From Pseudomonas phage pPa_SNUABM_DT01, in the sequence record MW735835.1: DNA of 64,000 bases, one strand, 5' to 3'. Below the pieces are notes generated by a model. That model saw nothing but the letters and a program-made list of their open reading frames with translations. It was not told the origin of the DNA and made no database searches. Within the stretch, counting starts at the first letter, position 1; every line of letters begins with the position of its first letter. Made by a program: the position numbers and the translations under genes. This document shows, one piece after another, positions 47,236-63,661 of the stretch.

Positions 47236-47826
47236 CTAAAGGTCTTTGACGACGTAGTACTCGTGCAGCAGACTCAGCCGCATCTCTTCCGTCACGTGCG
47301 TCACGCTGTGCTGGATATAGCTGGGGAAGATGTAGACATCACCAGCTTTGGGTGAGATGCGATAGTTGCCGAAATGGAACTGACGCATGGGTTTGGGATA
47401 CCCGCGACATGCGTTACCACGAGGGTCGAACATGTTCAAACCATTTGCCGAGTCCGACGGGTAGCAAATTGCCGACAGGACAGACCCGGGATGGTAATGC
47501 GGATACAGGCCTTCACCGCTTTCGATCCACTTGCCATTGGTCTCGACGTAGAACTCTTCCATGCTGGTGCCGAAGGCATGCTTGGAGAACTCTTTGACCG
47601 CCGGAGTGATCACGTCGTCACGGATCTCGATGATCAGTGGCATGACATCGCGCAGGACTTTCACCTGCGAGGCGTCTTCGCCCTGGGTCATGGTGAACAG
47701 CAGGAAGATCTCTTCTGCGTAGGCTTCCATGTCGAAGCGGTCAGCCACGTTGAAGTGTGCAATCTCGGTTTTCCACGGTTGGATGATTTCCACGTTACGC
47801 TCCATTAACAGAAATGATGCCCTCAT
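47236..47826 (-). CDS. 2OG-Fe(II)-oxygenase-like protein (phage / cyanophage-associated PF13759-type), 196 aa.
   Basis: LYPHYHPGSVLSAICYP .. GDVYIFPSYIQHSV (HxH .. FPS..H.V pattern). Confidence 0.55.
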   Translation of the reverse strand: MRASFLLMERNVEIIQPWKTEIAHFNVADRFDMEAYAEEIFLLFTMTQGEDASQVKVLRDVMPLIIEIRDDVITPAVKEFSKHAFGTSMEEFYVETNGKWIESGEGLYPHYHPGSVLSAICYPSDSANGLNMFDPRGNACRGYPKPMRQFHFGNYRISPKAGDVYIFPSYIQHSVTHVTEEMRLSLLHEYYVVKDL

Positions 47827-48226
47827 CCGTGCACTCGAGCAGACAGTACCGGACAGTCTGCGGAGCCCAACCCGAATTGATCCAATCAGGGATCTCCTTT
47901 AGACGCTCAATAATGGCGTCGTAGGTGGCTTGGTCTTGGTCGTAAGTGACGAAGTAAGGATCTTGACCCAGGAACAGGTCCTCATCACGCAAGGTCTCGT
48001 AAATGTCAATCCCGAAGAGTTCATTCAGCTTGTAGGCGTAAATGATCGCTACCGAGTAAGACTTGGCCGGGTAGTAAAGCGGGAAGGTCGCCTCTTTGAA
48101 GTAGTGCAGGGCGTTTTCGATCTTCTCCTCGCTCTCGACCATCTCCATCAACTCGAAGTCGTCGGTGTGGTCTCGGACAAGTTGGTTGTACAGGCGCTGG
48201 TTGTCTTTATACGGATGGGAACTCAT
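47795..48226 (-). CDS. Hypothetical acidic protein, 143 aa.
   Basis: ORF overlapping both neighbours (32 and 20 nt). Confidence 0.45.
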   Translation of the reverse strand: MSSHPYKDNQRLYNQLVRDHTDDFELMEMVESEEKIENALHYFKEATFPLYYPAKSYSVAIIYAYKLNELFGIDIYETLRDEDLFLGQDPYFVTYDQDQATYDAIIERLKEIPDWINSGWAPQTVRYCLLECTDEGIISVNGA

Positions 48227-48644
48227 AGTTGCTCACAAACGAGATGCGCAACTCATCATGAGGTGACCGCTCAACATGATGCAACAGTCGAGCTGAGAAG
48301 ATGACCAAGCGGCCTTCCTTCGGGTGCACACGGTGATGGTTGCCTTGTTGATCGTGGATCACCAATGGTCCTTCGGCATCCAGTAGGTAGAGTACCGAAG
48401 TGAACACATGAGGCAGGTGATCATGAGGGGTGAGGCCTCCCGGACCGATGTGCACGTGGTTCGCACAGATGACCAAGTCCTGGAGTTGCAGATGCTGCTG
48501 CGTCAGGGGCAGGATTGTTTCGTCCGCCCACTTGATCAGGTCTTCATTGATCACGACATCTTTGTCGATCTCGCAGAAAGCCTGATCTACGACCCAGTCG
48601 GGGACAGGTATCCCTTCAACCTGGAAGAACAAAGGCTCGTTCAT
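48207..48644 (-). CDS. Second 2OG-Fe(II)-oxygenase-like paralog, 145 aa from MNEPLFF.
   Basis: GLTPHDHLPHVFTSVLYL .. GRLVIFSARLLHHV; ATGA overlap with the upstream radical-SAM gene. Confidence 0.5.
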   Translation of the reverse strand: MNEPLFFQVEGIPVPDWVVDQAFCEIDKDVVINEDLIKWADETILPLTQQHLQLQDLVICANHVHIGPGGLTPHDHLPHVFTSVLYLLDAEGPLVIHDQQGNHHRVHPKEGRLVIFSARLLHHVERSPHDELRISFVSNYEFPSV

Positions 48645-49666
48645 ACCAGCACGTCCCATTTATTTTTCATGTTGACAAGGCAGGTATCGTGCTTGAGATG
48701 ATTCATGACCGCATGGATATCGCCACGCGCACAACGATCCAAATGCAAGCACTTCCCACACTCAGGCGAATGACTGCGCTGCACCAACTGCTCGAAGTAC
48801 ATCTCTTCTTCGAACTGCTCGAGGTTGATCCCAATCCATGGCTTCTTCAGTTCGAAGTCTGGCGCAAAGATGGGGAACTTCTCGATCAAGGTAGGTGTGT
48901 AGTACAACTTGCCTTGTCGGTAGGTAGCCTCCAGACTGTCCGTCTTGGGCTTGATCAGGAACCGGTTGTACTGGGTATCCTTGCAGGCCTGAATGACGTC
49001 ACAGAAGCGACTGAAGGCGTTCAGGAATGCTTGCCGGTTGACGAGGTCATCGAAGCCCTTACGCACATGCGGAAACACGTACTCGACCAAACGACGCATG
49101 CCGAATTCCAGCTCATGGATTTGCTGATTGGTCTCCACGGAGAAGTTCTCAATGGAGTCGCCAGTCATGTTCACCGTCAGGTACAGCAGCTCGAACTTCA
49201 CGTCCGGCAGGTGGTCAATCACGTACCGGACACGCTGACGGATCAAGTCCTGGTGCTTAGGGTTGTTGATACTCTTGAGCGGGAAGGGTGTCGCCAAGGT
49301 GAAAGACTTGCCTTTCATCAGGACGTTGATCTTCTCGCAGAGCACATCGAGCCCTGTGTCGTCTAACAAGGCCAAGGGCAATACCACGCTGTCAAAGCGT
49401 TCAGCGAGTCCCTGGATCAGAGCATGTTCCAGGATACCGACACTCGCCTTAGAGGCAATGACGTCCACCGGACCAATGGTGAACTCCCGCAAGCGGTAGC
49501 CTTCCTGCTTCATGTCATCGACCAGATCCAACAGATCCCGTCGATCTTTGTTGAACGGACCGGGATCGAAGTCCCGGTCTACCATGCAACCCACGCAGTG
49601 GTACTTACAGCCTTGAAGAATCTCAAGCGTCAGGTTGAACGCTCTGTTCGGAACCAGTGCTGACAT
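48641..49666 (-). CDS. Radical SAM enzyme 1, 341 aa.
   Basis: LEILQGCKYHCVGCMVD (CxxxCxxC) at residues 20-27; C-terminal CGKCLHLDRCARG. Confidence 0.75.
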   Translation of the reverse strand: MSALVPNRAFNLTLEILQGCKYHCVGCMVDRDFDPGPFNKDRRDLLDLVDDMKQEGYRLREFTIGPVDVIASKASVGILEHALIQGLAERFDSVVLPLALLDDTGLDVLCEKINVLMKGKSFTLATPFPLKSINNPKHQDLIRQRVRYVIDHLPDVKFELLYLTVNMTGDSIENFSVETNQQIHELEFGMRRLVEYVFPHVRKGFDDLVNRQAFLNAFSRFCDVIQACKDTQYNRFLIKPKTDSLEATYRQGKLYYTPTLIEKFPIFAPDFELKKPWIGINLEQFEEEMYFEQLVQRSHSPECGKCLHLDRCARGDIHAVMNHLKHDTCLVNMKNKWDVLV

Positions 49667-50672
49667 ATTGGAGCCCTACCAGGCAGTCTTTTATTTTCAT
49701 GCGTTCCATGATGTTGATGATGCCCTTCTCACTGCAACTGGACATGTAGACGCAGGACATGCATGGCGTATCTGCCAGATAGTCCAGGGCGCGTTCTAGG
49801 GCCTTCTGACGGGTGTTCAGAAGATTCTCCATAGTCCAGGGGCGGGGAATGACGAAGTCGTCTTCTAGGAAGGGACAATCGTCTTTGAGGAAGGGTACCC
49901 AGTACAGCTTGCTGTCGGTGTACAGCAAGTTCACCATAGTGCCGGTGTGGTAGCAGAGATCGGGGTTACGGCGGCGCTCATCCTCACCCGACAGACCCGA
50001 GTAGAACTGGGTGATGCGGTGAGACATACGCTTGATGTTCTGGGCGACCATCAGGTCCTTCACTGGCACACGCCCGTACGGGATGTTCAGGATGTCGTCC
50101 TTGTCCACCGGGAAGTCGACCTTGAAACCGTTCTTCATCATCTCGTCGAAGTCTTCGCCCACGGTGTCCGTGGTGCAGTTGACCACAAAGCCTGCTTCGT
50201 TGAGGTAGGCCTTTTTCAAGTGCTCCTTCACGAAGTCCAGCTTGGAGACGATCATCTTGCTGAACTTGTCCGACTTGAAGAACGATGGCGCAGCTGGCAT
50301 CAGGAACCGCACAGCCTTGCCGGGTATGGCCTCGTCGATCTCTTCGCACATGACCTTGTACAGGTCCATGTTCTTCTCAAGGAACGCCGCGTTGAAGGTG
50401 ACCTGATGAAACCCCTGAGCCATCTCACGGAACACCGGATGTTCCATGACCTCAGCCACGTTGTCCGCAGACATGTAGTCGGTCGGGCCGATCCCCATGT
50501 CGAACGCCACGTAGCCATTGGCCACCATTTCGTTGACCAAGGCAGCCAGTTTAGGAATGTCATCGACATCCCCTCCCAACTCACGGTCAATCATGCAGCC
50601 GGCGCAATGGTTCGCGCAACCCCGGAAGATGTCCAGGGTGATTTCCAGCCGTTGACGATGTTGTACGATCAT
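49623..50672 (-). CDS. Radical SAM enzyme 2, 349 aa; paralog of enzyme 1.
   Basis: ITLDIFRGCANHCAGCMID; C-terminal CMSCVYMSSCSEKG; overlaps enzyme 1 by 44 nt. Confidence 0.75.
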   Translation of the reverse strand: MIVQHRQRLEITLDIFRGCANHCAGCMIDRELGGDVDDIPKLAALVNEMVANGYVAFDMGIGPTDYMSADNVAEVMEHPVFREMAQGFHQVTFNAAFLEKNMDLYKVMCEEIDEAIPGKAVRFLMPAAPSFFKSDKFSKMIVSKLDFVKEHLKKAYLNEAGFVVNCTTDTVGEDFDEMMKNGFKVDFPVDKDDILNIPYGRVPVKDLMVAQNIKRMSHRITQFYSGLSGEDERRRNPDLCYHTGTMVNLLYTDSKLYWVPFLKDDCPFLEDDFVIPRPWTMENLLNTRQKALERALDYLADTPCMSCVYMSSCSEKGIINIMERMKIKDCLVGLQYVSTGSEQSVQPDA

Positions 50673-51601
50673 TTCTTACGTCCAGCCCAATTGTCCAATA
50701 GACCCCGGAAGCCGTTACAGGAATTCTTCAGGGAGGTGACTTCACGCAAGTGTTCGGAAAGGCAGTTGCCAAAGTACGGGCAGGAGGAGCAGAAGGGATT
50801 GTCTTGGACCCGGTCGCGTTCAAAACCACACCAGTCCAGATACCCTTGTACTCCATCGACCGTCAGGAAATACTCACGGTCGTCCTTGTCGAACTCCAGT
50901 ACTGCAAAATCCCCAGAGGGCGTGATGTAGATGTGGTCGTCGCTGAATGCATTGCGCTTACCTTCTACCGCCTCTTTTACTTGGGTCTCGTTCTCGAAGT
51001 AGAACTTGCGTGCAGGATGCTTGATCACTGCCCATACAAACTCTTCGAATTCCTTGAACGACACCTCGTGCTCGTTAGCCTGGTTGGTGCTGTACGGCTT
51101 GATCTCACACCCCATGAGGTGCGGGAACATGTTCATCGTCTCGACGTAATCGTCAGGCGTTGTCTTATCGAGGAACGCACGACTGGCCAGCGTCAGCACG
51201 TTGAAGCGCTGACTCAGCAGGAACATGTTGTTCAACACCAGCTCATGTTTCTCACGGGCTTCGAAGTCGTACGACACCGAGATCATGAACGCCTTGTCAT
51301 GGACGATGTCTGGCACGTGAGACAGGTTGGTCACCAGCACGATGTCAGTGATCCCACGGGTCAACAGAACCTGCTTGACGCCAATGAGGTACTCTTGAGG
51401 CAGCACCAGCACCTCACCACCGTAGATGTCGACATGACCAATTTCGAAGTGCTCCATCAGAGCATCGAGCCGATCAGCAAAGACATCCACAGGCAACAGA
51501 GTGCGGTCGCTTAACTGTTGCTCGGTGAGGTAACAAAACGAGCACCGGAAGTTGCAGTAGTACCAGGGGTTGAAGCTGATGTTGAGGCTGGGTTTGGCCA
51601 T
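50669..51601 (-). CDS. Radical SAM / SPASM-domain enzyme 3 (anSME / peptide-maturase-like), 310 aa.
   Basis: NPWYYCNFRCSFCYL; C-terminal CGFERDRVQDNPFCSSCPYFGNCLSEH Cys cluster. Confidence 0.8.
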   Translation of the reverse strand: MAKPSLNISFNPWYYCNFRCSFCYLTEQQLSDRTLLPVDVFADRLDALMEHFEIGHVDIYGGEVLVLPQEYLIGVKQVLLTRGITDIVLVTNLSHVPDIVHDKAFMISVSYDFEAREKHELVLNNMFLLSQRFNVLTLASRAFLDKTTPDDYVETMNMFPHLMGCEIKPYSTNQANEHEVSFKEFEEFVWAVIKHPARKFYFENETQVKEAVEGKRNAFSDDHIYITPSGDFAVLEFDKDDREYFLTVDGVQGYLDWCGFERDRVQDNPFCSSCPYFGNCLSEHLREVTSLKNSCNGFRGLLDNWAGRKK

Positions 51602-51780
51602 GATTGCAACGATTCCAGGAAGCGGCGTTGGTAGGGATGCAGGGGCTTGGTGTGACCGAGCGCCATCTCGGCAAAATCAGCGAGGTTGTCTCGGCAACGC
51701 TTGACGACTACTTTCTTGAGGACTTCGGGGATCTCAAGCTTGAGTTCGTATCCCGGAGGGAAGAATGCCATTTGATCCAT
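51511..51780 (-). CDS. Small ORF, 89 aa, between radical-SAM genes; its 3-prime 91 nt overlap the enzyme-3 start.
   Basis: ORF only; begins 3 nt after the enzyme-4 stop. Could be a precursor or accessory peptide, or spurious. Confidence 0.3.
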   Translation of the reverse strand: MDQMAFFPPGYELKLEIPEVLKKVVVKRCRDNLADFAEMALGHTKPLHPYQRRFLESLQSWPNPASTSASTPGTTATSGARFVTSPSNS

Positions 51781-51782
51781 GA

Positions 51783-52874
51783 TTAACCTTTCGCGATGAG
51801 TTGGACGGATTCGTCCTCGTAAGGGGTCGGTGTCAGATGGGCCGACATGCCATTGATCTCGATGATCTTGGCTGCCTGACTCTTCATCTTCCGACAGTGG
51901 TGTTCGGTCAAGCCAAACCGCTTGGTGTCCGAGATGGTCTTACGGCAACCATTGCAGATGGCAAACATCGGGCAGATGTAGCAGGATTCCTTCATCGACT
52001 GAAGGTGTTCCTGATCCCGTAACGGCAGGACCAGTTCCTTGCCAGACATCTCGGTCTCGAAGTCAATCGGGAACGCCATGTCGTCAGCAAAGGCACCGCA
52101 GGAGAAGTAATGACCACCGGGCTGCAAGGTACGGATACCTTCATCGCAGTTGCGAGCCAGAGGACACGTGGTGTGCTTGCCTTTAAGGCGCTTGGCCATC
52201 TGTTTGGTGTTGTACTCCCACTCCATCAGACCGGCTTCGTAGATCTGGATGTAGTGGCCGTAGATATCGGCTTGGGTGAAGAAGTTGTTCTCACTACCCA
52301 TCACCGTGCCGCGGTTGTTCACTTCAGGCCCAGAGGCCACGACATGGTTCACCTTGGCCTCGACACCCATCTCCTTGGCCAGCCTGACCGTATCCAAGAC
52401 AGTGTGCTCGTTGTCCTTGTCGATCACCGCAATGAAGTCCAAGCGGTAGCCGATGCGTTCAAAGAACAGGTCCGAGACCTTACGGAAATCCTCTTCAGTG
52501 AACGGCGTACCATCACCCTTCAGGCGTTTGTCGCCGTATTGGAACGACGTGGTGATGCCCAGACGTTCATGCTTGAACAACTCTTCCCACATCTCGGGCT
52601 TCTTGTAGAAAGCCCAGAGGTTAGAAGTGAAGCTGATGGATGCATCGCAGTTGTTGCGGTCCAGGATGGCGATCATGTCCCAGTAGTACTGGGGCGGCAT
52701 CATCAGAGGATCGCCACCGTTGACGATGATGGTGTTGGTATCGGGGAAGCGCTGAATGAAGCGTTCGATCTGATCCAGCTCAACGATGTCCTTGGGGTCC
52801 TCGGACAGGTAAGTACTGGAGCAGAACGTGCACTTGAAGTTACAGGCTACCGTTGGCTTGACGATGAGATCCAA
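51783..52874 (-). CDS. Radical SAM / SPASM-domain enzyme 4, 363 aa.
   Basis: VKPTVACNFKCTFCSS; C-terminal CPLARNCDEG .. SCGAF .. CYICPMFAICNGC (two auxiliary-cluster-like motifs). Confidence 0.8.
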   Translation of the reverse strand: MDLIVKPTVACNFKCTFCSSTYLSEDPKDIVELDQIERFIQRFPDTNTIIVNGGDPLMMPPQYYWDMIAILDRNNCDASISFTSNLWAFYKKPEMWEELFKHERLGITTSFQYGDKRLKGDGTPFTEEDFRKVSDLFFERIGYRLDFIAVIDKDNEHTVLDTVRLAKEMGVEAKVNHVVASGPEVNNRGTVMGSENNFFTQADIYGHYIQIYEAGLMEWEYNTKQMAKRLKGKHTTCPLARNCDEGIRTLQPGGHYFSCGAFADDMAFPIDFETEMSGKELVLPLRDQEHLQSMKESCYICPMFAICNGCRKTISDTKRFGLTEHHCRKMKSQAAKIIEINGMSAHLTPTPYEDESVQLIAKG

Positions 52875-53028
52875 TTGCCTGCTCCTGAGGTTGAGTGGTC
52901 CAAAGGTTGAAGTAATCGCGCTTGTCGATCTTGTCCGGGTTCTCGATAGTGAGTTGTTTCAGCTTCTCGGCTATTTCTTTTTCGGACATCTTGAGAAAAT
53001 TACGGGGAGGTACGGCCATGGCAGTCAC
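52840..53028 (-). CDS. Small ORF, 62 aa (MTAMAVPPRNFLKMSEKEIAEKLKQLTIENPDKIDKRDYFNLWTTQPQEQ..); overlaps enzyme 4 by 35 nt.
   Basis: ORF only; located between two SPASM maturase-like genes. Confidence 0.3.
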   Translation of the reverse strand: MTAMAVPPRNFLKMSEKEIAEKLKQLTIENPDKIDKRDYFNLWTTQPQEQAIGSHRQANGSL

Positions 53029-53116
53029 CCTCTTTAAAGAAAAGATTCATAAGAAAGGTTCCGCATGTTTTAAGACACACGGCATAAAGGCCCGGTCTAG
53101 CCGGGCCCCTATGTTG

Positions 53117-54118
53117 TCACGCAAGGATCACCTTGAACATGGCCTTGATCGAGCAGTCTTTCGACTTCTCGCCCAGGACCGTGTCATGCAGGAAACACCG
53201 TAGGCCACAGCGCTGATAGAACTCGCAACTGAAGCACCCGTAGTGTTCCACAAATGTCACTTCTGCGTTGTCCTTCGCGATCAGGCCTTCCTTCTCATCG
53301 AGGATTGCATCTTTGCCCGCTTCAGACCAACAGGTACTGATCACCCCATCCTTGTTGATGATCTTGGTGGAACGGCACGTGGTCTCGTTGACGACGTTAC
53401 GTTTCCAGTCCTTGATCGGATAGGAGTTCGGGTACTTGTCGTTCAGCTTGATGTACAGCTGACTGATCAGGTCTTCGTCGGGTTGATGATAGGCGTACAG
53501 CTGACTGGGGATGTAATGATCGAAGTACACGTCGTACTTGTCACAGAGCCAGACGAACTCGTCACCTTCCTTGCCATCGAGGAAGATTTGGATGTTCTGC
53601 TTGGTGATCACCACGTTGACCGTCTGAACGTACTCGCCCAGGACTTCGAGGTTCTGGAAGAACAGTTCACGCTGAGCACCATTGAAGCGCCCAGCAGGGT
53701 CGTAGGACGTGGCTAGCCAAACACGTGGGTCGATCAGCCGGAGCCGTTCGATCAGGTGCTTGACGCGGTCGGTGTTGTGGTAGACGAGATTGGTACCGAA
53801 GACCAACTTGACATCCTTGAAGTGTTCCAAGCACATCTTGCCGACTTGGTAGTACGCCTCGAAGACGTCATCACCAATCTCGTTCATGAACAGTTCACCG
53901 CCGGTGATGTTGACCACCATAGCCGTGTCTGGGTGCGTGGTTGCCAAGAGCTTGGCAGCCTTCTCGATCATCAGATCCCCGTCGAGACCCACTTTGGAAT
54001 CATGGTCCTGGTGGCAGAACGAGCAACGCATGTTGCACAGCTCGAACAGGATCAGGTGGGCTTCTTTCCACTTGCCCTTCTTGTCACGCAGGATGTCTAC
54101 AACAGGGATCAGGTCCAT
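53117..54118 (-). CDS. Radical SAM / SPASM-domain enzyme 5, 333 aa from MDLIPVV.
   Basis: ILFELCNMRCSFCHQD; C-terminal CWSEAG .. CFSCEFYQRCGLRCF. The track start is a TTG 6 nt upstream; the ATG shares one nucleotide with the upstream stop (TAATG). Confidence 0.8.
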   Translation of the reverse strand: MDLIPVVDILRDKKGKWKEAHLILFELCNMRCSFCHQDHDSKVGLDGDLMIEKAAKLLATTHPDTAMVVNITGGELFMNEIGDDVFEAYYQVGKMCLEHFKDVKLVFGTNLVYHNTDRVKHLIERLRLIDPRVWLATSYDPAGRFNGAQRELFFQNLEVLGEYVQTVNVVITKQNIQIFLDGKEGDEFVWLCDKYDVYFDHYIPSQLYAYHQPDEDLISQLYIKLNDKYPNSYPIKDWKRNVVNETTCRSTKIINKDGVISTCWSEAGKDAILDEKEGLIAKDNAEVTFVEHYGCFSCEFYQRCGLRCFLHDTVLGEKSKDCSIKAMFKVILA

Positions 54119-55173
54119 TACCAACGCGCTCCGGTGAGAGCCGCCTTCAGGCCTGCCAGGTCAGTGGTCAGGATGTGGCGGATCAGGTTCTCGTCGTACT
54201 TGCCGGTGTCACGCATCGCCAGGGCAATACGCATCTCGCCAGCAAACATGTCGGTCACACGACGCAGGCAGTTCTCGGGTTCACGCATGTTGGCTTCGTC
54301 GTTCAGCAGCGAGAGGATCTGAGCAGCACGGCGGGACGAGGATTCGTCTTCGAGCTGGTGCATCAGTTCAACGGCCTCCATCAGCATGCCCTTGATCCAG
54401 ACGTCGGTCGGACGGAAGTCGTACAGGCCCGGACGGAGCAACTGTTGAGACGCCAGGTGCGGCAGATTGAGGCAACCTTCGAACACGGTCGGTGCGTTCA
54501 GCAAGGTGTCGACGTCGGCGCCGGCCAGTTCCCAGTTCTCGGGACGGGTCAGGTGACGAGCCCAGACGTCCATGGCATCGTGGGCGTTCGACAGTGCGAT
54601 ACGACGCAGGATGTTCTTGGTGGTCTTCGGGATCTTGCCGACACGGGCATCGGTACGCAGGCGAGCAATGTGCCACTCCAGCGAGAGGGCTTCCGGGTTA
54701 CGGAGTACCAGCTCGTTCATGGCCTCTTGCAGCGGTTCGTCCTTGTCGAACAGCGCCTGCACGACCTTGGTGTCGATCTTGATGCTGGACAGCACATCGA
54801 CGCGAGGTTCGCCCATGGCGACGATCAGGCTGTTGAAGGTGGCCTTCTTGCACACGAAGAACCAACGGAAGTTCTCGAAGTCGATCTTCGGGAACAACGC
54901 CTTGATCAACATGGCGTACAGGCGGGTATAGGTGTCGCTGTCGCAGTACACCATGACCTTGTCCTTGCTCTCGAGCGCTGCACCGAAGACCTCGGTGAAT
55001 TGCTCGGGTTCGAACTGGTCGAGGCTCTGGGCGAAACCCAGCTGCACACCGACTTCTTCGAACTCGCCCGGGCTGTGTTTCCAGCCGATCTGGGGCGAGA
55101 TGGTAATGACGTTCTTCGAGCGGTCAATCCGCAGTTCGGAGTCGACGTACGCCTGGTTAAACAGATGGTACAT
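54118..55173 (-). CDS. Hypothetical protein, 351 aa, within the radical-SAM cluster.
   Basis: Coupled ORF; no recognisable motif. Confidence 0.5.
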   Translation of the reverse strand: MYHLFNQAYVDSELRIDRSKNVITISPQIGWKHSPGEFEEVGVQLGFAQSLDQFEPEQFTEVFGAALESKDKVMVYCDSDTYTRLYAMLIKALFPKIDFENFRWFFVCKKATFNSLIVAMGEPRVDVLSSIKIDTKVVQALFDKDEPLQEAMNELVLRNPEALSLEWHIARLRTDARVGKIPKTTKNILRRIALSNAHDAMDVWARHLTRPENWELAGADVDTLLNAPTVFEGCLNLPHLASQQLLRPGLYDFRPTDVWIKGMLMEAVELMHQLEDESSSRRAAQILSLLNDEANMREPENCLRRVTDMFAGEMRIALAMRDTGKYDENLIRHILTTDLAGLKAALTGARW

Positions 55174-56032
55174 GTTCGATACCTTTCAGGACATTGAGGT
55201 TGGACTGGAGTTCCGCACGTCCAGCTTGCTCGAGTCGAACCAGCTGCTCGGGTTCGCTCAGCGACAGCAGACCCAGGAAGTAGGGGTTGTGCTCGCTATC
55301 GAAGAAGGCGAACAGGTTCTTGCCGGCGAAGCAGTACTCGTTGAAGAACATCTTGTTCCAGCACCAGTCTTCTTCCGGGATGTCTTGCATCAGCACCGGG
55401 AACAACGGGTGTTGGATGAGCTTCACGAAGTTCAGGCCCAGCAGGCTTTCACCTTCGATCTCGGGGTAGTTGGCTACCTGATCCTTCAGCGTGGCGTAGC
55501 TGTGCAGGGCGTAGACCGGGACCATGCAGACGTTCTGCATCCAGGTCTCGAGGATGTCGCGATGCTCCTCGATGAACGGGACGGGATTGAACGGCAGCAG
55601 GTAAGGCTTGCCCGACGCAGCCAAAAGCAAGTTGATGGCCAGGTCTTCCATCTCAGGCAGATTCACCATGGAGGTGATGTAGAGATAGTCCTTCAGCATG
55701 TCCAACTTGGCTTCCAGCGAGGAGAACTTGATCTCGCACTTGATGTCCAGGTTGGTTAGGTAGGTGATCAGCACACTGCCTTTGTACTTGCTGTTGTCGT
55801 AGTCGACGATGAACTTCACGTTCTCCGAGAACTTACGCTTGAGCGTCAGCATCGGGATCGGAACGGTCACTTCGAGCACGACCAACTTGTCCCGCCACTC
55901 CTGCTCTTCTTTCAAGAGCAGTTTGTATTCCAGCTTCATGCCGAGAGACATGCTGTTCAGGCGCTCTCGGTCTTTTCTCGGATTGCCGGTCAACTTGTGC
56001 CGTTTGCGGAACTCGTCGAGTTGCTTCTCCAT
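55157..56032 (-). CDS. Hypothetical protein, 291 aa, within the radical-SAM cluster.
   Basis: ORF overlapping the downstream gene by 17 nt. Confidence 0.5.
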   Translation of the reverse strand: MEKQLDEFRKRHKLTGNPRKDRERLNSMSLGMKLEYKLLLKEEQEWRDKLVVLEVTVPIPMLTLKRKFSENVKFIVDYDNSKYKGSVLITYLTNLDIKCEIKFSSLEAKLDMLKDYLYITSMVNLPEMEDLAINLLLAASGKPYLLPFNPVPFIEEHRDILETWMQNVCMVPVYALHSYATLKDQVANYPEIEGESLLGLNFVKLIQHPLFPVLMQDIPEEDWCWNKMFFNEYCFAGKNLFAFFDSEHNPYFLGLLSLSEPEQLVRLEQAGRAELQSNLNVLKGIEHVPSV

Positions 56033-56044
56033 GGTGAACTCCTA

Positions 56045-56581
56045 TTACCGGCGGCCGCGAGCAGAGTGACAGCTCGTGTGGCAGCTGGTGTGACAGATGG
56101 TATTTTGCAGGGTGAGGACCTGTGCACGGCAGGCATTCTGATAAGCGCTCAGGAGAGCGTTACATGCGTTGTTATAGACGTTGAGGTCCATGTTGGTGCC
56201 TTCGGTCAGAGCGCCGAGGTTAGCACCAGAGGCGAAATCCACTCCATAGACCGTATGACCAACAGCGGTCACATCGAAGATCAGTTCCTGACCAACAGCG
56301 TAATGGGTACGCCAGATCAGGACACGGCACGTCCGAATACCACTGAATAGGTTGGCCACGTAACGAAGAACCTGGGTGGCTTGCAGTGCTTGCGGCTCAC
56401 CGGCGGTGAATTGCTCGGTAGCGAACAGTGCGCCTTTGCCACCGGTAGTGCCAGCGAACCAGCCTGGCAGGCCATTCGGCGGTACGTTGTTGGTACCCCA
56501 GGCGATACCGGCGTTCATGTTGTTGCTGAGAATCGTGTTGGCGTTGGCAGCCAGTCGACTCCGACGAATCACTTCGGTCAT
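56045..56581 (-). CDS. Protein of 178 aa with a Gly/Ala/Thr/Asn-rich body and a C-terminal tandem Cys motif ..NTICHTSCHTSCHSARGRR; candidate radical-SAM substrate.
   Basis: Starts 1 nt after the stop of radical-SAM enzyme 6; three tandem CHTS/CHS units at the extreme C-terminus. Confidence 0.55.
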   Translation of the reverse strand: MTEVIRRSRLAANANTILSNNMNAGIAWGTNNVPPNGLPGWFAGTTGGKGALFATEQFTAGEPQALQATQVLRYVANLFSGIRTCRVLIWRTHYAVGQELIFDVTAVGHTVYGVDFASGANLGALTEGTNMDLNVYNNACNALLSAYQNACRAQVLTLQNTICHTSCHTSCHSARGRR

Positions 56582-56582
56582 A

Positions 56583-57623
56583 TCACACCTTCAGAATCAG
56601 ATTGGTCTGTTGCGTTCGACCGGAGAGGTAACGCAGGGTGTTCTTGAGACCCCCACAGCGACCCTTCTGCCAAGGCAGTCGGTGACAGTCGCCCCCACAC
56701 AGATCAAACACGTCGCACGTAATGCACGTATCGCCCCAAGTCAGTTCTTTGGCTTGTTGCTCCACCCGGCCATCCGAAATAAGGAAAGCGTCGACACCAT
56801 CCTCCAAGCGTGCATGGTGCAGCTTAGCGGCAGCGTTAGGGCAACCAGACAAAGAACCGTCCGAGTTGATGGTCACCAGGTTCTGCTCGCAGTTGCGGCA
56901 GTTGGTGTCCACCTTGACGACGTTCTTCTTGAGCTTTTCCTCGAGGATGTCGAGGGTCTTGATGCGCACACGTGGCTTGCGTTCTTTGTAGCGCAGGTAC
57001 AGCGCAAGGTACCAGTTGTCCTGGTCCTCATTGTTAGGGAAGATCTCGGGGTTATCGACAGCACTGCCATCGTTGGTCAACCGTTCCAAGGACGCTTCAT
57101 CCACTGCAAAGCTGTCCAACTGGTCCATCAGCCAATCGGGCGACATGGCGATGAGTTGCTTGCTGACCGACACCTTGACATTGATGCCCACGCCGTGGGA
57201 CTTCAGGGTCTCGAGGTTCTTCTTCCATAGCTGGAACTGCTTGTCGTTGCTCCAGCGAATCCAGTGGTCCCAGCTGGTCCCAATGAATGCACCGAAGTAA
57301 TCCTTGATGAAGGCGATGTGCTCATCCGTCAACTTGAAGGTCAGGTTGCTGGCGGCACACATCGACACGTTCGGCAGATCCACGAAGTGATCAGCGAAAC
57401 GCTTGAGCTTTTCCAACGGGACCAGGAACGGTTCCCCACCATGGAACTCCATGTGGTAGTGCGTGCTCTTGGGGTACTTGGACATGAAGTCCTTCACCCA
57501 ATCGCTGACCTGGTCCGGATCGAACGGGGTCTTATCCCCGGCCTTGCCGTTGGTGAAACAATGCTGACAGTTCAGATTGCAAGTGCCCGTGGTCTTGACA
57601 TAGATGGTTTTGTAGGCGTTCAC
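56583..57623 (-). CDS. Radical SAM / SPASM-domain enzyme 6, 346 aa.
   Basis: VKTTGTCNLNCQHCFTNG; C-terminal CRNCEQN .. GCPN .. CITCDVFDLCGGDCH. Confidence 0.8.
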   Translation of the reverse strand: MNAYKTIYVKTTGTCNLNCQHCFTNGKAGDKTPFDPDQVSDWVKDFMSKYPKSTHYHMEFHGGEPFLVPLEKLKRFADHFVDLPNVSMCAASNLTFKLTDEHIAFIKDYFGAFIGTSWDHWIRWSNDKQFQLWKKNLETLKSHGVGINVKVSVSKQLIAMSPDWLMDQLDSFAVDEASLERLTNDGSAVDNPEIFPNNEDQDNWYLALYLRYKERKPRVRIKTLDILEEKLKKNVVKVDTNCRNCEQNLVTINSDGSLSGCPNAAAKLHHARLEDGVDAFLISDGRVEQQAKELTWGDTCITCDVFDLCGGDCHRLPWQKGRCGGLKNTLRYLSGRTQQTNLILKV

Positions 57624-58177
57624 AGCTTCGCTTCCAAAAAGAGTTCCAAGCCGAAACTAATCATCAGGGAACTGTCGACATTGATGGCCTGGTGAAGTTC
57701 ACCACGCGGAATATGGATGCTGTCCCCGGCAGTGAGTTCGATCTCGCCATCAGGGAACTTGAAAACTTTACGGCCTTCGACCATGTAGATGACGACGTCA
57801 TCTAGGTCTGTGTGCATCGGGAAGCTGACGCCCCCTTTCGGCGAAATGAAAAGATGAGCGCTCACTGGCCCCACGTGTCCGAAATGCGCAGCAAGCCGCG
57901 CACAGTTCTGGAACATGGTGGCATTGAGGCGCTCGATCCCTTCGATCTTGACCGGGCAATCGCTGTTCTCCAGGAAGTCAGACTGACTGTAGAGGTCGAA
58001 CGATTGCGCGTTCTTGATGTATTTCACCAGGCACTGCTCGTACAGATGCGGGCTTGACAGCAGAAGGTCCACATCGAGAAGCTCAGGAGTGATCCCCTCG
58101 AATTGAAAACCAAGACGTTCGAACATGTTCAAGCCCTCTCTGAAGTTGGTGTCTATAGGATTGCCTAGAAGGATCAA
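57620..58177 (-). CDS. Cupin / JmjC-like Fe(II)-oxygenase-fold protein, 185 aa.
   Basis: SFPMHTDLDDVVIYMVEGRKVF .. GDSIHIPRGELHQA (HxD .. H triad in a cupin-like spacing); ATGA-coupled on both sides. Confidence 0.55.
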   Translation of the reverse strand: MILLGNPIDTNFREGLNMFERLGFQFEGITPELLDVDLLLSSPHLYEQCLVKYIKNAQSFDLYSQSDFLENSDCPVKIEGIERLNATMFQNCARLAAHFGHVGPVSAHLFISPKGGVSFPMHTDLDDVVIYMVEGRKVFKFPDGEIELTAGDSIHIPRGELHQAINVDSSLMISFGLELFLEAKL

Positions 58178-59748
58178 TCCTGCCAGAGCGGCGGCCAGAC
58201 CTGCTGCCAGACACTGTTCACGGAGGCGTACAGACGGCCACCGGCGTTCAGCAGGGCAATGGTCGGATCGCTACCCAGGTTCGGGTCATTAGCCCCCGGA
58301 GCAGCGAAGCCGGTCCAGGTAGCCGGCCACAGTTGGCGCCAGGCACCAGAGATGTAACCTTGCAGGGTGCTACCCACTACACGAAGCGAGGTGTTCTGCG
58401 AGACGTTGATCTTCACATAACGCGAATCGTGGTCACCCGACTGCACGTGATCGTACATCCCGCCTGCGGTGAGCAGGTAGGCATCGGAGTTCAGCGTACG
58501 GGAACGAGTGATGGCGTTCGGCAGGTTGCCGAGGCCCACTTGTGCCTTGGTCGTTTGGTGCGGGTTGTTGAGGTTGGACACGTGGGAGTTGATCAGGTTA
58601 CCGGCGATTGCGTCGATGGCCTGCTTGGTCCGCAGAGGTGTCATGAACCGGTCATTGAGAACACCGGCTACCGCTTCGGCTTGGGTGGCGGTCTGGAAGT
58701 TGTCTACCAGGCCCAGGCCCACCTGTGCTTTCGTGGTGTTGTGCGGGTTGTTCTTATCGTTGACGTGGTTCTGGATGAGGGTACCGGCGTGGACCATGAT
58801 GGCCTGGTAAGTGCGCTGCGGCGTCATGAACGCGTTAGCAGCAGTACCGGCTTCGGCTTGAGCCTGGGTCGCTGTCGGGAAGTTGTCCACGCTACCGAGC
58901 CCGACTTGGGCCTTGGTGGTATTGTGGGGGTTGTTCTTGTCCGCGATGTGCGTGTCGACGGCTTCATTGGCCAGACGAGCAGCAAGCACTGCCACCAGAC
59001 TCGGGGTCATGTACTTGTTGTTCACGACACCGGCCAGCGCTTCTGCGTTGGTGGCGATACCGTAGTTCTCGACCGAACCCAACCCTACCTGCGCCTTGGT
59101 GGTGCGGTGTGGGTTGTTGAAGTCGTTCAGGTGCGCATCGACTTTGTCATCCAGAGCATCGATGTTCGCCTGGAGCTGGTCACGGATGAATTGCATCTGT
59201 TGACGCAGTTCGTCGTGAGACGCCTCATCACCCACCAGGATGGCATTGGTGATGCGTTCCAGCTGCCATACGACGTATTCCCAGCCATAGCTGTCGCCGA
59301 TGTCGTGGATGTGCGGAGCCGGCGGGTAAGCCGTCGGACGACCGATGATCGAACCCCACTTGATGGGGCGTTCATCGAGGTCCAGCTCAGCGATGAGGTC
59401 AGCCAGGGCACCCAGGTTCCAGGAGTACTCGCCACCGACGACTTGGTAGTCCATGCGGACTGCAACCGGGGCTTGTACCTTCAGAACGACGGCACACTGC
59501 ACGTCCTTGCCGCTGCGCAGAGAAGCTTGAGCGAATGGTTGAGCGAGCACGTAGTCGTCGACCGGAATCAACGGCTCACCGGTGTCGTCGTTGACCAGGA
59601 CCATGCTCTCAGTGTAGAACGGGCCAGCCTTGGGAACGAAGACCCGCTCGTTGTTGGCGGAGATCTCTCGGCGTTCCCCGACGATCTTGTTCGTCGGCGA
59701 GGTACCCTTGAGATCAAGAGGGTACTGAATGATCGGTGGTACTGGCAT
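58174..59748 (-). CDS. Tail fibre protein B, 524 aa, with about 3.5 tandem ~60-aa repeats (NNPHxTTKAQVGLGSVxNF..ATxAxAxAG..FMTP).
   Basis: Repeats at residues about 211-415. N-terminal domain YPLDLKGTSPTNKIVGE..FVPKAGPFYTESM is paralogous to the fibre A N-terminus. Confidence 0.7.
   Translation of the reverse strand: MPVPPIIQYPLDLKGTSPTNKIVGERREISANNERVFVPKAGPFYTESMVLVNDDTGEPLIPVDDYVLAQPFAQASLRSGKDVQCAVVLKVQAPVAVRMDYQVVGGEYSWNLGALADLIAELDLDERPIKWGSIIGRPTAYPPAPHIHDIGDSYGWEYVVWQLERITNAILVGDEASHDELRQQMQFIRDQLQANIDALDDKVDAHLNDFNNPHRTTKAQVGLGSVENYGIATNAEALAGVVNNKYMTPSLVAVLAARLANEAVDTHIADKNNPHNTTKAQVGLGSVDNFPTATQAQAEAGTAANAFMTPQRTYQAIMVHAGTLIQNHVNDKNNPHNTTKAQVGLGLVDNFQTATQAEAVAGVLNDRFMTPLRTKQAIDAIAGNLINSHVSNLNNPHQTTKAQVGLGNLPNAITRSRTLNSDAYLLTAGGMYDHVQSGDHDSRYVKINVSQNTSLRVVGSTLQGYISGAWRQLWPATWTGFAAPGANDPNLGSDPTIALLNAGGRLYASVNSVWQQVWPPLWQD
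58503..59118 (-). repeat. Coding tandem repeats (about 180-nt units) inside tail fibre B.
   Basis: Near-identical NNPHNTTKAQVGLG blocks; they also generate the spurious plus-strand ORFs at 58508..58810 and 58883..59065. Confidence 0.6.
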
Positions 59749-59816
59749 GGATTACTCCATTTCCTAAAAGGGGATCGAATAATGACACGCTCCGCCGAAA
59801 CGGAGCGTGTTCATGG

Positions 59817-62210
59817 TCAGGCGAACAGGTTGGTCATCGCGTTATCGATAACCGAGATCAGCCCATCGCAGAGCAGACCAATGTCGTTGTCCACCTTGGC
59901 CGCGGTCGATTTCGGAGTCATGTACAGGTTGGTCGCAGTGCCAGTTACAGCTTGAGCGTCAGTCGCCGTACCGTAGTTGTTGACGCTGCCGAGGCCCACC
60001 TGAGCCTTCGTCACTTGCATCGGGTTGTCCCGACGGGCAATGAAGGTTTGCAGGGCTTCGATATCTGCCGAACCGTCAGCGATGACTTCCGGGTACACGA
60101 TGCCAGCAGGTTCTACACGGATCAGATCCGCGACATCTTCCCACACGGGGTATTCAGCCCCAACGAACCGCTTGAAGGACAGTTCGGTGATGGTCAGACG
60201 GTTACGCGAACCGGTGGACTTCAGCCACACTTCCATGATCGCATCGGTACCGGTGCCCACAGCCAGCACACCGATCTCGATGGGCTTGTCGGCAGGCGAC
60301 AGATGCTTGACCGAGGCACCCTTGAGCACCATCAGGAACGGACCAGCGCCATCGATGTTGTCGTACACCGCACCGATCTCTACCAGCACCGTGTGGTGTT
60401 TGAAATCACCGAGGCTATCGTCGTCACGACCACCGCTGATCAACAGGGTCAGGTCAGCAGTCAGGTCTTCAGCAGTGTTGCTGAAATGACCCAGCTTGAC
60501 CCAGTTCGTTGGCGCCTGGACTTCGTTGCCCACGTCATCGAACAGCTGCGGCATCGGCGGTACATCCCACTGGATGGAACTGCCTTCCACGGCCGTGGCC
60601 ATGTCTGCCTTAACCTGAGCGTAGGTCTTGCCGTCGAACTTGCTGGTGTCGGCCGCTTTACCGGTCAGGATGTCGGTTTTGGCTTCGAGGTAGGTCTTAC
60701 CTTCGAACTTCAGCGCGTTACCCGCAGTCTGGGTGGCCAGCCAAGCGATCATCTCTGCCTGACTCATGCCGTAGACACGGTTGGAGTTGGCAGCGGTGTC
60801 GTTCAGCCCGATCTTGTCCTCGAGGAGGGTATCGATCTCTTGCTCGGTGTACGTGCCGACCTGTGCAGCGGTCACCCGGTGTGGGTTGGTGTAGTCGGTC
60901 ACGTGAGCATTGGAGCTGTCACCCACAAGTTCGTTGATCGCATAACGCACCTGGAGCGGGGTCATGTAACGATCGTTGGCAGTGGCTGCCCGAGACTCGG
61001 CTTCCGTAGCGATGCCGTAGTTCTGAACGAGGCCCAGACCTACTTGTGCTTTGGTAGTGCCGTGTGGGTTGTTGAAGTTGTTGACGTGATCGCTCACGCC
61101 CGAACCAACGGTCTGGCTCAGCACCAGCGCCAGCAGACGCGGGGTGATGATGCCGGAGTCATCCACGCCCGACAGGGCCGCAGAGTCACTGGCAACGGGG
61201 ATGTTCGGGACGTTACCCAGACCTACCTGAGCCTTGGTCGTTTGGTGCGGGTTGTTCTTATCGGCAACGTGAGCATCGAAGGCATTGCCAATGATGGCGA
61301 CGATGGCCTCACGGACACGAACCGGGGTCATGTAACGGGCAGCGGATGCACCGGCCTCGGCTTCTGCCTGAGTGGCGATCGCGTAGTTCTGCACGTTACC
61401 CAGGCCGACCTGAGTCTTGGTGACCTGGTGAGGATTGTTCATGTCGGCCATGTGCAGGTTGAGGTTTGCCTGCGCGGTCGCATCGATCAGCTGCTTGACG
61501 CGCAGCGGCGTCATGAAGCGATTGTTCGCTGTACCGGTGGTCGCTTCACCAACGGTAGCCGTCGGGAAGTTATCGACCAGACCCAGACCCACTTGGGCCT
61601 TGGTCACATCGTGCGGGTTACTCTTGTCCGCCAAGTGGTCAGCCAGGCCGCCAGCGTTCTTCATCAGAATCGCTTGTTCGATGTCACCCAGTTCGTCGAC
61701 CACTTCCGACATGCCGACGAAATCGTCGATATTGAAGTCGTGGTTGACCACCGGGAACTGATGCGGCAATTCGACGACCTGTTCCCAGGTGCCGATACGC
61801 GGGTTGAAGGCGACGTTGAGCAGCAGCTCGCTGTACTTCTGATCATCGAGCACCCACTCGCCGCCGATGTTCTGGTATTCCATCCGCAGCTGACCGGCCA
61901 AGTTGCGGTCATAGAACGTGATGGCACCGTAGACGGGCAGTCCAATGGTATGCGATGCGTGAGCGAAGTGGTAACCGAAGTTATAGTGCACGCCCTCTTC
62001 GAGGGCCTGACCTAGTGCCGGATTGTTGGTGTTGGCTCCAGCCGGATAGAGGCGGAGTTTAACGCTTTCGGCATAAAACGGGCCACTGCGCGGAATGATG
62101 TAATAATGGTCGAACATCCCACGAGATTGGATCTGTTGGGTTTCGACCACCTTATTCGTCGCCGCAGTCCCCGTCGGATCGAAAGGGTATTGTGGAAGGA
62201 CAGTACTCAT
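59817..62210 (-). CDS. Tail fibre protein A, 797 aa, with at least five tandem NNPHxxTKAQVGLGxVxNY..ATxAEAxAG..YMTP repeats plus one more near the C-terminus.
   Basis: Repeats at residues about 197-455 and about 720-760. Also has K(F)EGKTYLEAKTDIL / KFDGKTYAQVKADM elements like the other fibre-type proteins. Confidence 0.7.
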   Translation of the reverse strand: MSTVLPQYPFDPTGTAATNKVVETQQIQSRGMFDHYYIIPRSGPFYAESVKLRLYPAGANTNNPALGQALEEGVHYNFGYHFAHASHTIGLPVYGAITFYDRNLAGQLRMEYQNIGGEWVLDDQKYSELLLNVAFNPRIGTWEQVVELPHQFPVVNHDFNIDDFVGMSEVVDELGDIEQAILMKNAGGLADHLADKSNPHDVTKAQVGLGLVDNFPTATVGEATTGTANNRFMTPLRVKQLIDATAQANLNLHMADMNNPHQVTKTQVGLGNVQNYAIATQAEAEAGASAARYMTPVRVREAIVAIIGNAFDAHVADKNNPHQTTKAQVGLGNVPNIPVASDSAALSGVDDSGIITPRLLALVLSQTVGSGVSDHVNNFNNPHGTTKAQVGLGLVQNYGIATEAESRAATANDRYMTPLQVRYAINELVGDSSNAHVTDYTNPHRVTAAQVGTYTEQEIDTLLEDKIGLNDTAANSNRVYGMSQAEMIAWLATQTAGNALKFEGKTYLEAKTDILTGKAADTSKFDGKTYAQVKADMATAVEGSSIQWDVPPMPQLFDDVGNEVQAPTNWVKLGHFSNTAEDLTADLTLLISGGRDDDSLGDFKHHTVLVEIGAVYDNIDGAGPFLMVLKGASVKHLSPADKPIEIGVLAVGTGTDAIMEVWLKSTGSRNRLTITELSFKRFVGAEYPVWEDVADLIRVEPAGIVYPEVIADGSADIEALQTFIARRDNPMQVTKAQVGLGSVNNYGTATDAQAVTGTATNLYMTPKSTAAKVDNDIGLLCDGLISVIDNAMTNLFA
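60845..61622 (-). repeat. Coding tandem repeats inside tail fibre A.
   Basis: Five consecutive about 60-aa units beginning (N/S/T)NPH. Confidence 0.6.
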
Positions 62211-62322: not shown

Positions 62323-62339
62323 GGCATACCATTATCGTG
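62323..62339 (+). promoter_or_regulatory. Promoter-like motif GGCATACCATTATCGTG just upstream of the gene at 62353.
   Basis: Variant of the ATACAT(T)ATCG motif family in an AT-rich intergenic region. Confidence 0.3.
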
Positions 62340-62352
62340 GGAGACTCGATAA

Positions 62353-63654: not shown

Positions 63655-63661
63655 CGGCAAA

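Follow-up and report, generated by a model that had tools for sequence, protein, structure and literature searches.

A conserved Cys-His tail encoded beside a radical-SAM enzyme module in jumbo phages: candidate substrate on a probable fibre-associated virion protein

The tail protein gp065 and its Cys-His motif

The DNA analysed here (the window, 64,000 nucleotides of record MW735835.1) comes from Pseudomonas phage pPa_SNUABM_DT01 (DT01), a 265.5-kb jumbo phage, and carries on its minus strand the gene gp065 (56045..56581), the product of which we refer to as the tail protein. This protein of 178 residues comprises an alpha/beta domain (residues 1 to 163) and a C-terminal tail with the motif CHTS-CHTS-CHSA-RGRR (residues 163 to 178; 56048..56095, minus strand), as delimited by invariant alignment columns and position tallies, and it matches hypothetical protein PA10_00065 of the same phage at 100% identity. 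Its C-terminal end is ...NTICHTSCHTSCHSARGRR, encoded by a reading frame that ends ...LQNTICHTSCHTSCHSARGRR and is followed by two stop codons, and its C-terminal tryptic peptide is AQVLTLQNTICHTSCHTSCHSAR. In the six-frame translation of the window, an open reading frame (ORF) contains at least two consecutive C-[H/Y]-x-x units at this one place only. Directly ahead of gp065 lies gp066 (56583..57623, minus strand), which encodes a radical S-adenosylmethionine (rSAM) enzyme with a SPASM domain; its TGA (56585..56583) is separated by 1 base from the gp065 ATG at 56581, and a Shine-Dalgarno-like sequence, GAAGGTG, stands 4 nt ahead of that ATG. An earlier reading of the DNA without database searches (the sequence-only reading) had placed the ORF and its start 1 nt past the rSAM-SPASM stop, and the sequence bears this out. 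Upstream, a cupin gene overlaps the gp066 start and a 524-residue fibre gene overlaps the cupin start; because of these start/stop overlaps and the 1-nt gap, the fibre, cupin, rSAM, and tail-protein genes make up one translationally coupled string.

Scans of gp065 against Pfam, NCBIfam (E values up to 0.01), and PADLOC matched no family, and the PHROG scan gave just a weak C-terminal match to an unknown family. No match was returned when 9.5 kb of the window (49000-58500) was compared by megablast with 50,697 cultured phage records, among which the DT01 genome itself seems to be missing, or when a second family member was compared by tblastn with the cultured phage collection. A profile search of 1.84 billion representative proteins gave 290 clusters (50% identity) at E values up to 1e-3, the majority of them 170 to 205 residues long and aligned end to end; the gp065 tail defines a large unannotated family.

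As judged from the alignments, the tail is the most conserved part of this family. The pattern T-I-C-H-T-S-C-H-x-x-C-H-x-x-R-G-R-R is invariant in 13 close homologs at 45 to 79% identity, and the consensus for the family is [VI]-C-H-x-S-C-H-x-[SN]-C-H-x-[SAN]-R-G-R-R-COOH. When all proteins and loci collected were taken together, the strict form (C-H-x-x)x3-R-x-R-R-COOH was kept in 262 of 291 distinct tails; therefore, the Cys-His tail is not a chance feature, and the tandem Cys repeats first noticed in the sequence-only reading are real. That reading had proposed a search for homologs with variable numbers of CHTS units; about 90% of relatives have three, and the count does not vary freely. 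Across 204 strict tails, the residue preceding the first Cys was V or I in most, and the fourth position was S in 191, N in 9, and Q in 4 for the first unit; S in 136, N in 62, A in 4, and D in 2 for the second; and S in 152, A in 26, and N in 26 for the third.

The 29 tails that deviate from the strict pattern do so in several ways. One His is replaced by Tyr in three of them, one Cys is lost with H-x-S/N retained in five, and the His is lost with the Cys retained in one; an extra residue precedes the final R-x-R-R in six, three end without R-x-R-R, two have only two units, and three, together with the tail at locus L142, have four units with a Gly/Pro-rich extension. Judged by these variants, the aromatic-x-S/N part seems to be constrained at least as strongly as the Cys. 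One relative (P0022) has 13 units arranged in repeated blocks. The tail protein of Ralstonia phage RSL2 has no cysteines other than those of its tail, and the tail of the homolog in Agrobacterium phage Atu_ph07 reads FCHSSCHASCHNSRSRR. Short family versions of 125 to 140 residues, in tandem pairs, were observed in a single bin, Rhodobacteraceae Water_Bin34 (L094 121-6879, L100, and L113).

The sequence-only reading had described the product as low in complexity (G/A/T/N-rich), which was not borne out. AlphaFold2, run on gp065 with 14 sequences, gave an alpha/beta domain over residues 1 to 163 (predicted local distance difference test [pLDDT], 86; predicted template modelling score, 0.81), and sequence entropy in 20-residue windows was 2.8 to 3.6 bits; this confident model and these entropy values rule out a low-complexity or disordered protein. 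The family profile had no significant match among PDB sequences, and the fold of the domain is without a PDB counterpart. Over the last 18 residues, the motif region, pLDDT was 69, dropping to 50, with a short helix modelled at residues 165 to 171; the tail is thus predicted to be less ordered than the body of the protein and exposed.

Linkage of the tail protein to a radical-SAM module

The neighbouring enzyme, gp066 (346 residues; Pfam Radical_SAM), carries a CxxxCxxC motif at residues 15 to 22 (C15, C19, and C22) and the SPASM cysteines C245-x10-G256-x4-C261, C300-x2-C303-x5-C309-x3-C313, and C323. Both the CxxxCxxC motif and the seven-Cys SPASM pattern are invariant in 24 orthologs, and by this pattern gp066 is a complete, true rSAM-SPASM enzyme; its score against the SPASM model TIGR04085 was 25.7 bits (cut-off, 27). 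Because the CxxxCxxC motif already stands at residues 15 to 22, there is no N-terminal extension the size of an RRE, the recognition element of peptides made ribosomally and modified posttranslationally (RiPPs). The best NCBIfam match was to the anSME model TIGR03942 (50.9 bits), which missed the cut-off of 349 bits, and the scores for the models of YhhB (49.5 bits; cut-off, 445), PapB (46.8 bits; cut-off, 340), FxsB (44.1 bits; cut-off, 370), AmcB (42.4 bits; cut-off, 425), and QhpD (20.1 bits; cut-off, 453) were likewise below theirs. In searches of the PDB, the sole match of the single gp066 sequence was ChlB, a triceptide synthase (9e-4), and the profile of gp066 orthologs matched anSME 4k37 (7.8e-11), 8vpo, CteB (3.7e-8), and ChlB (1.4e-7). 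By these similarities, gp066 belongs with the protein- and peptide-modifying SPASM enzymes.

Seen from either side, the linkage between the tail protein and this enzyme is near absolute. When IMG/VR was scanned with the family alignment, 125 loci were confirmed, of which 80 were fetched and combined with 3 cultured-phage loci into a synteny set, in which the window proteins were compared with all ORFs by phmmer. The order cupin, rSAM346 (the gp066 ortholog), tail protein, p291, (p351), rSAM335, rSAM363, rSAM310 is kept in almost all of these 83 phage loci, with three to four additional rSAM genes after p351 and with identity among the syntenic tail proteins down to about 22%; it is also kept in Ralstonia phages RsoM3USA and RSL2 and in Atu_ph07. 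The cupin-rSAM346 pair has moved about 5 kb downstream in two loci (L050 and L067) and was not found in the flank of two others (L079 and L082). For the reverse test, 80 loci were chosen by rSAM346 similarity (40 to 80% identity), and in each of the 76 with enough downstream DNA the tail ORF comes right after the rSAM gene.

Among the 50,697 cultured phage records, an rSAM346 ortholog was found only in jumbo phages of 222 to 490 kb (Atu_ph07, Sinorhizobium phage Phosso, RsoM3USA, RSL2, RSF1, FLC4-x, FLC6, FLC8, and SURPRISE13); Campylobacter phage CP220, which has many rSAM genes, has no ortholog at E values below 1e-20. Cultured phages with the module are jumbo phages of Pseudomonas, Ralstonia, Burkholderia, Agrobacterium, and Sinorhizobium, and many uncultured phages have it as well. 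Near the module in some uncultured phages (L034, 862-2439 and 3696-4412; L079, 3037-4929), we also observed a tryptophan halogenase homolog, ferrochelatase-like proteins, and extra 2-oxoglutarate (2OG) oxygenases.

The other genes of the module in DT01 all lie on the minus strand. Upstream of gp066 and overlapping its start with its stop is gp067 (57620..58177), which encodes a 185-residue cupin/JmjC-like Fe(II) oxygenase (Pfam Cupin_2, 2.6e-9; JmjC_2, 4.8e-8); the cupin gene is directly upstream of the rSAM gene in most loci. Directly downstream of gp065 lies the gene for the conserved protein p291 (phrog_20767; 55157..56032), the true start of which may be an internal Met in DT01, because most homologs begin about 45 residues later than the 291-residue ORF. 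It is followed by the gene for p351 (54118..55173), a conserved protein that is weakly conserved across loci and the profile of which matched nothing significant in the PDB. Then come the genes for the rSAM paralogs gp062 (335 residues; 53117..54124; Pfam Radical_SAM, phrog_1802; conserved in the module), gp060 (363 residues; 51783..52874; Pfam Radical_SAM, 4e-14, with a weak SPASM match), gp059 (310 residues; 50669..51601; Pfam Radical_SAM, phrog_1802; conserved in the module), gp058 (rSAM-like; 349 residues; 49623..50672; CANHCAGC [CxxxCxxC] in its translation, with orthologs in the loci), and gp057, the sixth (341 residues; 48641..49666; weak Pfam Radical_SAM match). The best-conserved module member is gp060, which has weak full-length NCBIfam matches to DynA and anSME. 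Last are two 2OG-Fe(II) oxygenase genes (48207..48659, Pfam 2OG-FeII_Oxy_5; 47236..47826, Pfam 2OG-FeII_Oxy_3), with a 143-residue ORF between them (region 47236..48659, minus strand).

Six rSAM paralogs, the JmjC-like cupin, and two 2OG-Fe(II) oxygenases are therefore encoded in one 11-kb block (47236-58177, minus strand) with one obvious motif-bearing substrate candidate. The sequence-only reading had proposed gp065 as the best candidate cargo of the adjacent enzyme set; the protein keeps that place, but the set is a module of 9 to 12 genes rather than a pair. Small ORFs of 62 and 89 residues lie between and overlap the rSAM genes (52840-53028 and 51511-51780, minus strand). The genome paper on DT01 counted six radical SAM genes (gp057 to gp060, gp062, and gp066) and, as to their role, went no further than suggesting DNA repair or a boost to host metabolism (PMC8541153).

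Predatory bacteria have the module too. A scan of prokaryotes (one genome per species) with a degenerate DNA pattern for CHxS-CHxx-CHxx-RxRR-stop gave 32 loci, 20 of them from metagenome-assembled genomes of Bdellovibrionota (Bdellovibrio, Pseudobdellovibrio, Bacteriovoracaceae, and Halobacteriovoraceae); examples from loci L084 to L115 are the tail proteins at L096 3089-3646, L097 2955-3644, and L112 46-744. In these genomes the tail ORFs are surrounded by module genes in more variable order and orientation, and sometimes there are two tandem tail paralogs; in Halobacteriovoraceae locus L096, two 2OG oxygenases adjoin the module, and B12-binding rSAMs are found in some clusters (L106 2152-3879 and L086 4283-6124). 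The flanking genes are cellular (hutU, lspA, and genes for an ABC-F ATPase and a DctP binding protein), and the contigs that carry three of the loci measure 1.29, 2.45, and 2.84 Mb; the possibility that all Bdellovibrionota matches are mis-binned phage contigs is ruled out by these 1.3- to 2.8-Mb contigs with hutU, lspA, ABC-F, or DctP genes. Most of the matches outside this group, in which the phage gene order is kept, are probably mis-binned phage contigs, and one locus (L085), with no module gene or tail ORF, resembles a chance match. PHROG scans of the unassigned ORFs of six Bdellovibrionota loci (8 kb each) gave no tail-fibre match, and neither the Bdellovibrionota tail proteins nor the phage members have a signal-peptide-like N terminus by eye.

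Virion location and competing explanations

The virion proteome of Atu_ph07 includes gp170, a 31.89-kDa hypothetical protein identified by 8 unique peptides (35% coverage) and present in gel slices 1 to 9, with peak abundance in slice 1 (PMC6102473, Table S5). Its identity as the tail-protein homolog is fixed by mass, because the computed mass of the homolog is 31.89 kDa and those of its neighbours gp176 (66.07 kDa) and gp177 (21.66 kDa) also match the listing. The tail protein is therefore a virion component in this one relative. Missing from the virion protein list (PMC6102473) are gp171, the rSAM enzyme; gp172, the cupin; and gp169, the p291 homolog. This difference between the tail-protein homolog and the enzymes argues for the tail protein as a product of the module and against a helper role. 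The position of gp170 at the top of the gel could reflect covalent links or an oligomer stable in sodium dodecyl sulfate.

In DT01, two tail-fibre proteins of 524 and 797 residues, with PHROG tail and virion structural matches, are encoded directly upstream of the module (58174..62210, minus strand). Divergent loci have a fibre-like protein with a phrog_19602/22593-type C-terminal domain ahead of the cupin and a giant phrog_358 protein before that; where rSAM346 is absent from its usual place (L079 and L094), the tail ORF directly follows a fibre protein with that type of C-terminal domain, the tandem pair at L094 coming directly after a 1979-residue protein with a fibre-type C-terminal domain. 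Fusions to a Gly_rich_2 domain occur in some family members, and in one relative the N-terminal region of the family, without the tail, is joined to the fibre chaperone domain Peptidase_S74. The tail protein is probably fibre associated, and for DT01 such an association would follow from this gene context. Both DT01 fibre proteins contain many copies of a repeat of about 40 residues with the core N-N-P-H-x-T-T-K-A-Q-V-G-L-G-x-V-x-N. Long ORFs also lie antisense to the fibre genes (59736-62015 and 58333-59955, plus strand) and to a 433-residue gene at 62353-63654 (62332-63660, minus strand); these are probably by-products of composition, not genes.

Small proteins encoded just after tail-fibre genes are familiar as the adhesins and chaperones of the T4 gp38 type, with which the gp065 family shares the position downstream of a fibre gene, a homolog in the virion, and fusions to Gly-rich and Peptidase_S74 domains. 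Unlike the gp38-type genes, gp065 is separated from the fibre gene by the cupin and rSAM genes, and the module is also found in cellular chromosomes with no fibre gene within 8 kb; no similarity of sequence or fold to solved fibre proteins was found for the family.

In the reading that we prefer, and that we consider reasonably probable, the gp065 tail is the substrate of the module, and gp065 is a matured, fibre-associated virion protein. We infer both the covalent modification of the tail and the enzyme responsible for it. The fibre protein, the JmjC-like cupin, the rSAM-SPASM enzyme, and the tail protein would be made from one coupled message, on which the two p-type proteins (p291 and p351), four to five further rSAM paralogs, and the 2OG-Fe(II) oxygenases would follow. 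The exposed 16-residue tail would be acted on by gp066, and probably by the remaining radical and oxygenase enzymes too, inside the infected cell and ahead of assembly of the protein into the virion at or near the tail fibre. The two-way linkage, the conservation of the tail, its predicted lower order, and the virion homolog in Atu_ph07 all support the suggestion of the sequence-only reading that gp065 is the best candidate product and substrate of the adjacent enzymes. The picture of a low-complexity, peptide-like precursor has to give way to a folded domain of about 160 residues with a tail and, in one relative, to a virion protein.

Several observations weigh against this interpretation. 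Six rSAM paralogs are out of proportion to one short tail, so some or all of the rSAMs may act on other substrates. The rSAM346 ortholog is not beside the tail protein in L079, L082, L094, L100, and L113, and the statistics on loss of Cys and His among variant tails are based on nine sequences. The gp066 enzyme is no guide to the chemistry, because its NCBIfam scores are far under the cut-offs and the ortholog profile puts anSME above the triceptide synthase. The virion data on gp170 do not report the C-terminal peptide, and disulfides formed through the three Cys would account equally well for its position in the gel, since the published loading buffer lists no reductant (PMC6102473).

The strongest rival is a pure metal site, in which the tail would bind Zn, Fe, or Cu without covalent modification, with the Cys-His pairs on one face of a short helix and the metal held within a chain or between chains at the fibre; the rSAMs and oxygenases would then act on the fibre proteins, p291, p351, or a small molecule. 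We regard this as possible but rather unlikely. Metal ions coordinated by His lie on the axis of the T4 gp37 and gp12 fibres, and a site of this kind would suit the invariance of Cys and His at the fixed spacing i, i+4, i+8 (a further point against a substrate role), the short helix modelled at residues 165 to 171, the confinement of the RSL2 cysteines to the tail, and the presence of the Atu_ph07 homolog in the virion beside adjoining fibre genes. Reactive free thiols are also in keeping with the way gp170 ran, at high apparent mass and with no reductant listed for the gel. However, a metal site leaves unaccounted for the two-way adjacency and translational coupling to the SPASM enzyme, the Ser/Asn at the fourth position of the units, the invariant R-x-R-R end, the variants that keep H-x-S without Cys, and the His-to-Tyr swaps; moreover, so many Fe(II) oxygenases and rSAMs beside one small protein are typical of maturation clusters.

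The virion data and the conserved folded domain make the two other explanations unlikely. If gp065 were the precursor of a RiPP, a 160-residue leader would precede a 16-residue core that is crosslinked in the manner of sactipeptides, ranthipeptides, or triceptides, cleaved, and released as a small bioactive peptide; a repeated C-terminal motif beside an rSAM-SPASM gene is indeed found in many RiPP clusters, and the 13 units in blocks of P0022 resemble multicore precursors. This is very improbable, however, given that the N-terminal domain is conserved at full length as a folded unit and is found fused to fibre-type domains, that family scans recognised no protease or exporter among the module proteins, and that the Atu_ph07 homolog is in virions at 35% coverage. 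Equally improbable is an enzyme helper, comparable to metallochaperones such as SlyD and UreE with their flexible Cys/His-rich tails, from which the six rSAMs and three oxygenases would obtain Fe-S clusters or Fe(II). Many Fe-S and Fe(II) enzymes are indeed encoded in one block with gp065, and flexibility is predicted for its Cys/His-rich tail; against this, the homolog, unlike the enzymes, is packaged in virions, family and PDB searches gave no similarity to known Fe-S scaffolds or carriers, and the strict S/N positions and R-x-R-R end would be unexpected in a chaperone tail.

Likeness to known maturation systems and possible significance

If the tail is a substrate, known rSAM systems offer several precedents for its chemistry. 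In triceptides, crosslinks from His-C2 to the beta carbon of X3 have been proven for HAA, HNR, and HTK (PMC11499958). The substrates of the enzymes that form these crosslinks (the 3-CyFEs HaaB, YhhB, HtkB, and ChlB) have aromatic-X2-X3 units at the C-terminal end, as in the threefold H-x-S/N of the present family; the gp065 units are H-T-S, H-T-S, and H-S-A, and almost all of the 204 strict tails have S, N, or A as X3. Both systems have an adjacent rSAM-SPASM enzyme, with YhhB, FxsB, and AmcB among the best NCBIfam matches of gp066, and the three His-to-Tyr variants fit an aromatic position. Unlike the triceptide precursors, which are short leader-core peptides, gp065 is a folded protein of 178 residues with a homolog that is a virion component in Atu_ph07; it also has an invariant Cys ahead of each unit, an R-x-R-R end, and a module with five more rSAMs and three oxygenases. 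The gp066 scores of about 45 to 50 bits are far from the cut-offs of the triceptide synthase models (370 to 445), and with the profile anSME and CteB score above ChlB.

A second precedent is HxsA, the effector of the bacterial anti-phage system HXS, which is matured by two rSAMs; a modification of +8 Da (+C -4H) was mapped to S-H-R-S-S, in which neither the flanking Ser nor the His nor the last Ser is dispensable (PMC13128918). The HXS substrate, as in the gp065 module, is a protein with tandem H-x-S units served by more than one rSAM, the S-H-R-S-S layout is the same as that of [C]-H-x-S-[C] in the gp065 tail, and both systems stand in phage-host conflict. Unlike those of HxsA, the gp065 repeats are C-terminal, contain Cys, and are not basic; gp065 has no peptidoglycan-binding domain (Pfam) or obvious signal peptide, its homolog was found in the virion and not in the periplasm, and the module is found in phages and Bdellovibrionota, whereas HXS is found in Enterobacteria. 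The HxsA model TIGR03979 did not match gp065, HxsD was not found in the scans of the module, and the HxsB and HxsC models gave 19 to 26 bits with the module rSAMs (cut-offs, 268 to 370); membership in HXS is therefore ruled out.

The best match of gp066 by both PDB profile and NCBIfam, anSME, is likewise an rSAM-SPASM enzyme without an RRE that acts on a protein. Its sulfatase motif, C-x-P/A-x-R, has Arg at +4, as does the last gp065 unit, C-H-x-x-R, with its invariant R; unlike the motif (C/S)-x-(P/A)-x-R, the family has Gly, Ser, or Asn and rarely A at +2, as well as three Cys rather than one. Neither that motif nor a sulfatase domain or fold (Pfam) was found in gp065. The sequence-only reading had invoked Cys crosslinking of the sactipeptide, ranthipeptide, or QhpC type. 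These systems (QhpC/QhpD; SCIFF/CteB and PapA/PapB) also combine a Cys-rich C-terminal region with an adjacent rSAM-SPASM gene; QhpC is a protein subunit, not a released peptide, and CteB and PapB are among the PDB and NCBIfam matches of gp066, respectively. Such crosslinking stays as one option, but it lost ground, since the PapB/QhpD-type Asp/Glu acceptor is missing (the tail has no acidic residue, and Cys+4, which is Asp or Glu in PapA and QhpC, is the next Cys or, after the third, Arg), His is as invariant as Cys, and the variants favour H-x-S/N.

The modification could accordingly take one of several forms: crosslinks of the His-triceptide kind, from His to a beta carbon within every H-x-S/N unit; a change at [S/C]-H-x-S-[S/C] like that in HxsA; thioethers formed by Cys; conversion of Cys to formylglycine at the last C-H-x-x-R, as by anSME; or hydroxylation of His or of Arg in the R-x-R-R end by the JmjC-like cupin. 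The last could be envisioned because the JmjC_2 Pfam family includes ribosomal Arg and His hydroxylases. Because five variants lose Cys, three change His to Tyr, and one loses His, His-centred chemistry of the triceptide or HxsA type would be at least as likely as Cys crosslinking.

The module would work like the known rSAM systems that mature repeat-bearing substrates (triceptides, HxsA, QhpC, and sulfatases) but, by the tests applied, belongs to none of these families, and no description of it was found in the literature library searched. It is unusual in that its proposed substrate is a virion protein, in the great size of its enzyme set, and in its distribution over jumbo phages and predatory bacteria. 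Maturation of peptides by radical-SAM enzymes is well known, but that of a phage particle protein is not, and here a 16-residue tail that is easy to assay is bound by near-perfect gene linkage to many radical and Fe(II) enzymes. Possibly, although we hold this only tentatively, the tail protein is the first example of a structural protein of the virion that owes its maturation to radical-SAM enzymes. The module of 9 to 12 genes, comprising six SPASM- or twitch-type rSAMs, the JmjC-like cupin, and 2OG oxygenases, would construct on the (C-H-x-S)x3-RGRR tail a Cys/His/Ser structure that is new and multiply crosslinked or oxidised; at the host or prey envelope, that structure would serve recognition, penetration, or metal capture. 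The prediction can be tested directly, because the host of DT01 is P. aeruginosa.

If the tail is indeed modified, new enzyme chemistry on a Cys-His-x-Ser scaffold would be implied, and the abundance of rSAM genes in these phages, which has been ascribed elsewhere to DNA repair or host metabolism (PMC8541153), would be accounted for. Entry of phage DNA is blocked by the bacterial HxS-repeat effector, and by analogy the tail could also be its counterpart on the side of the attacker, and would then provide a phage-side parallel to that defence effector.

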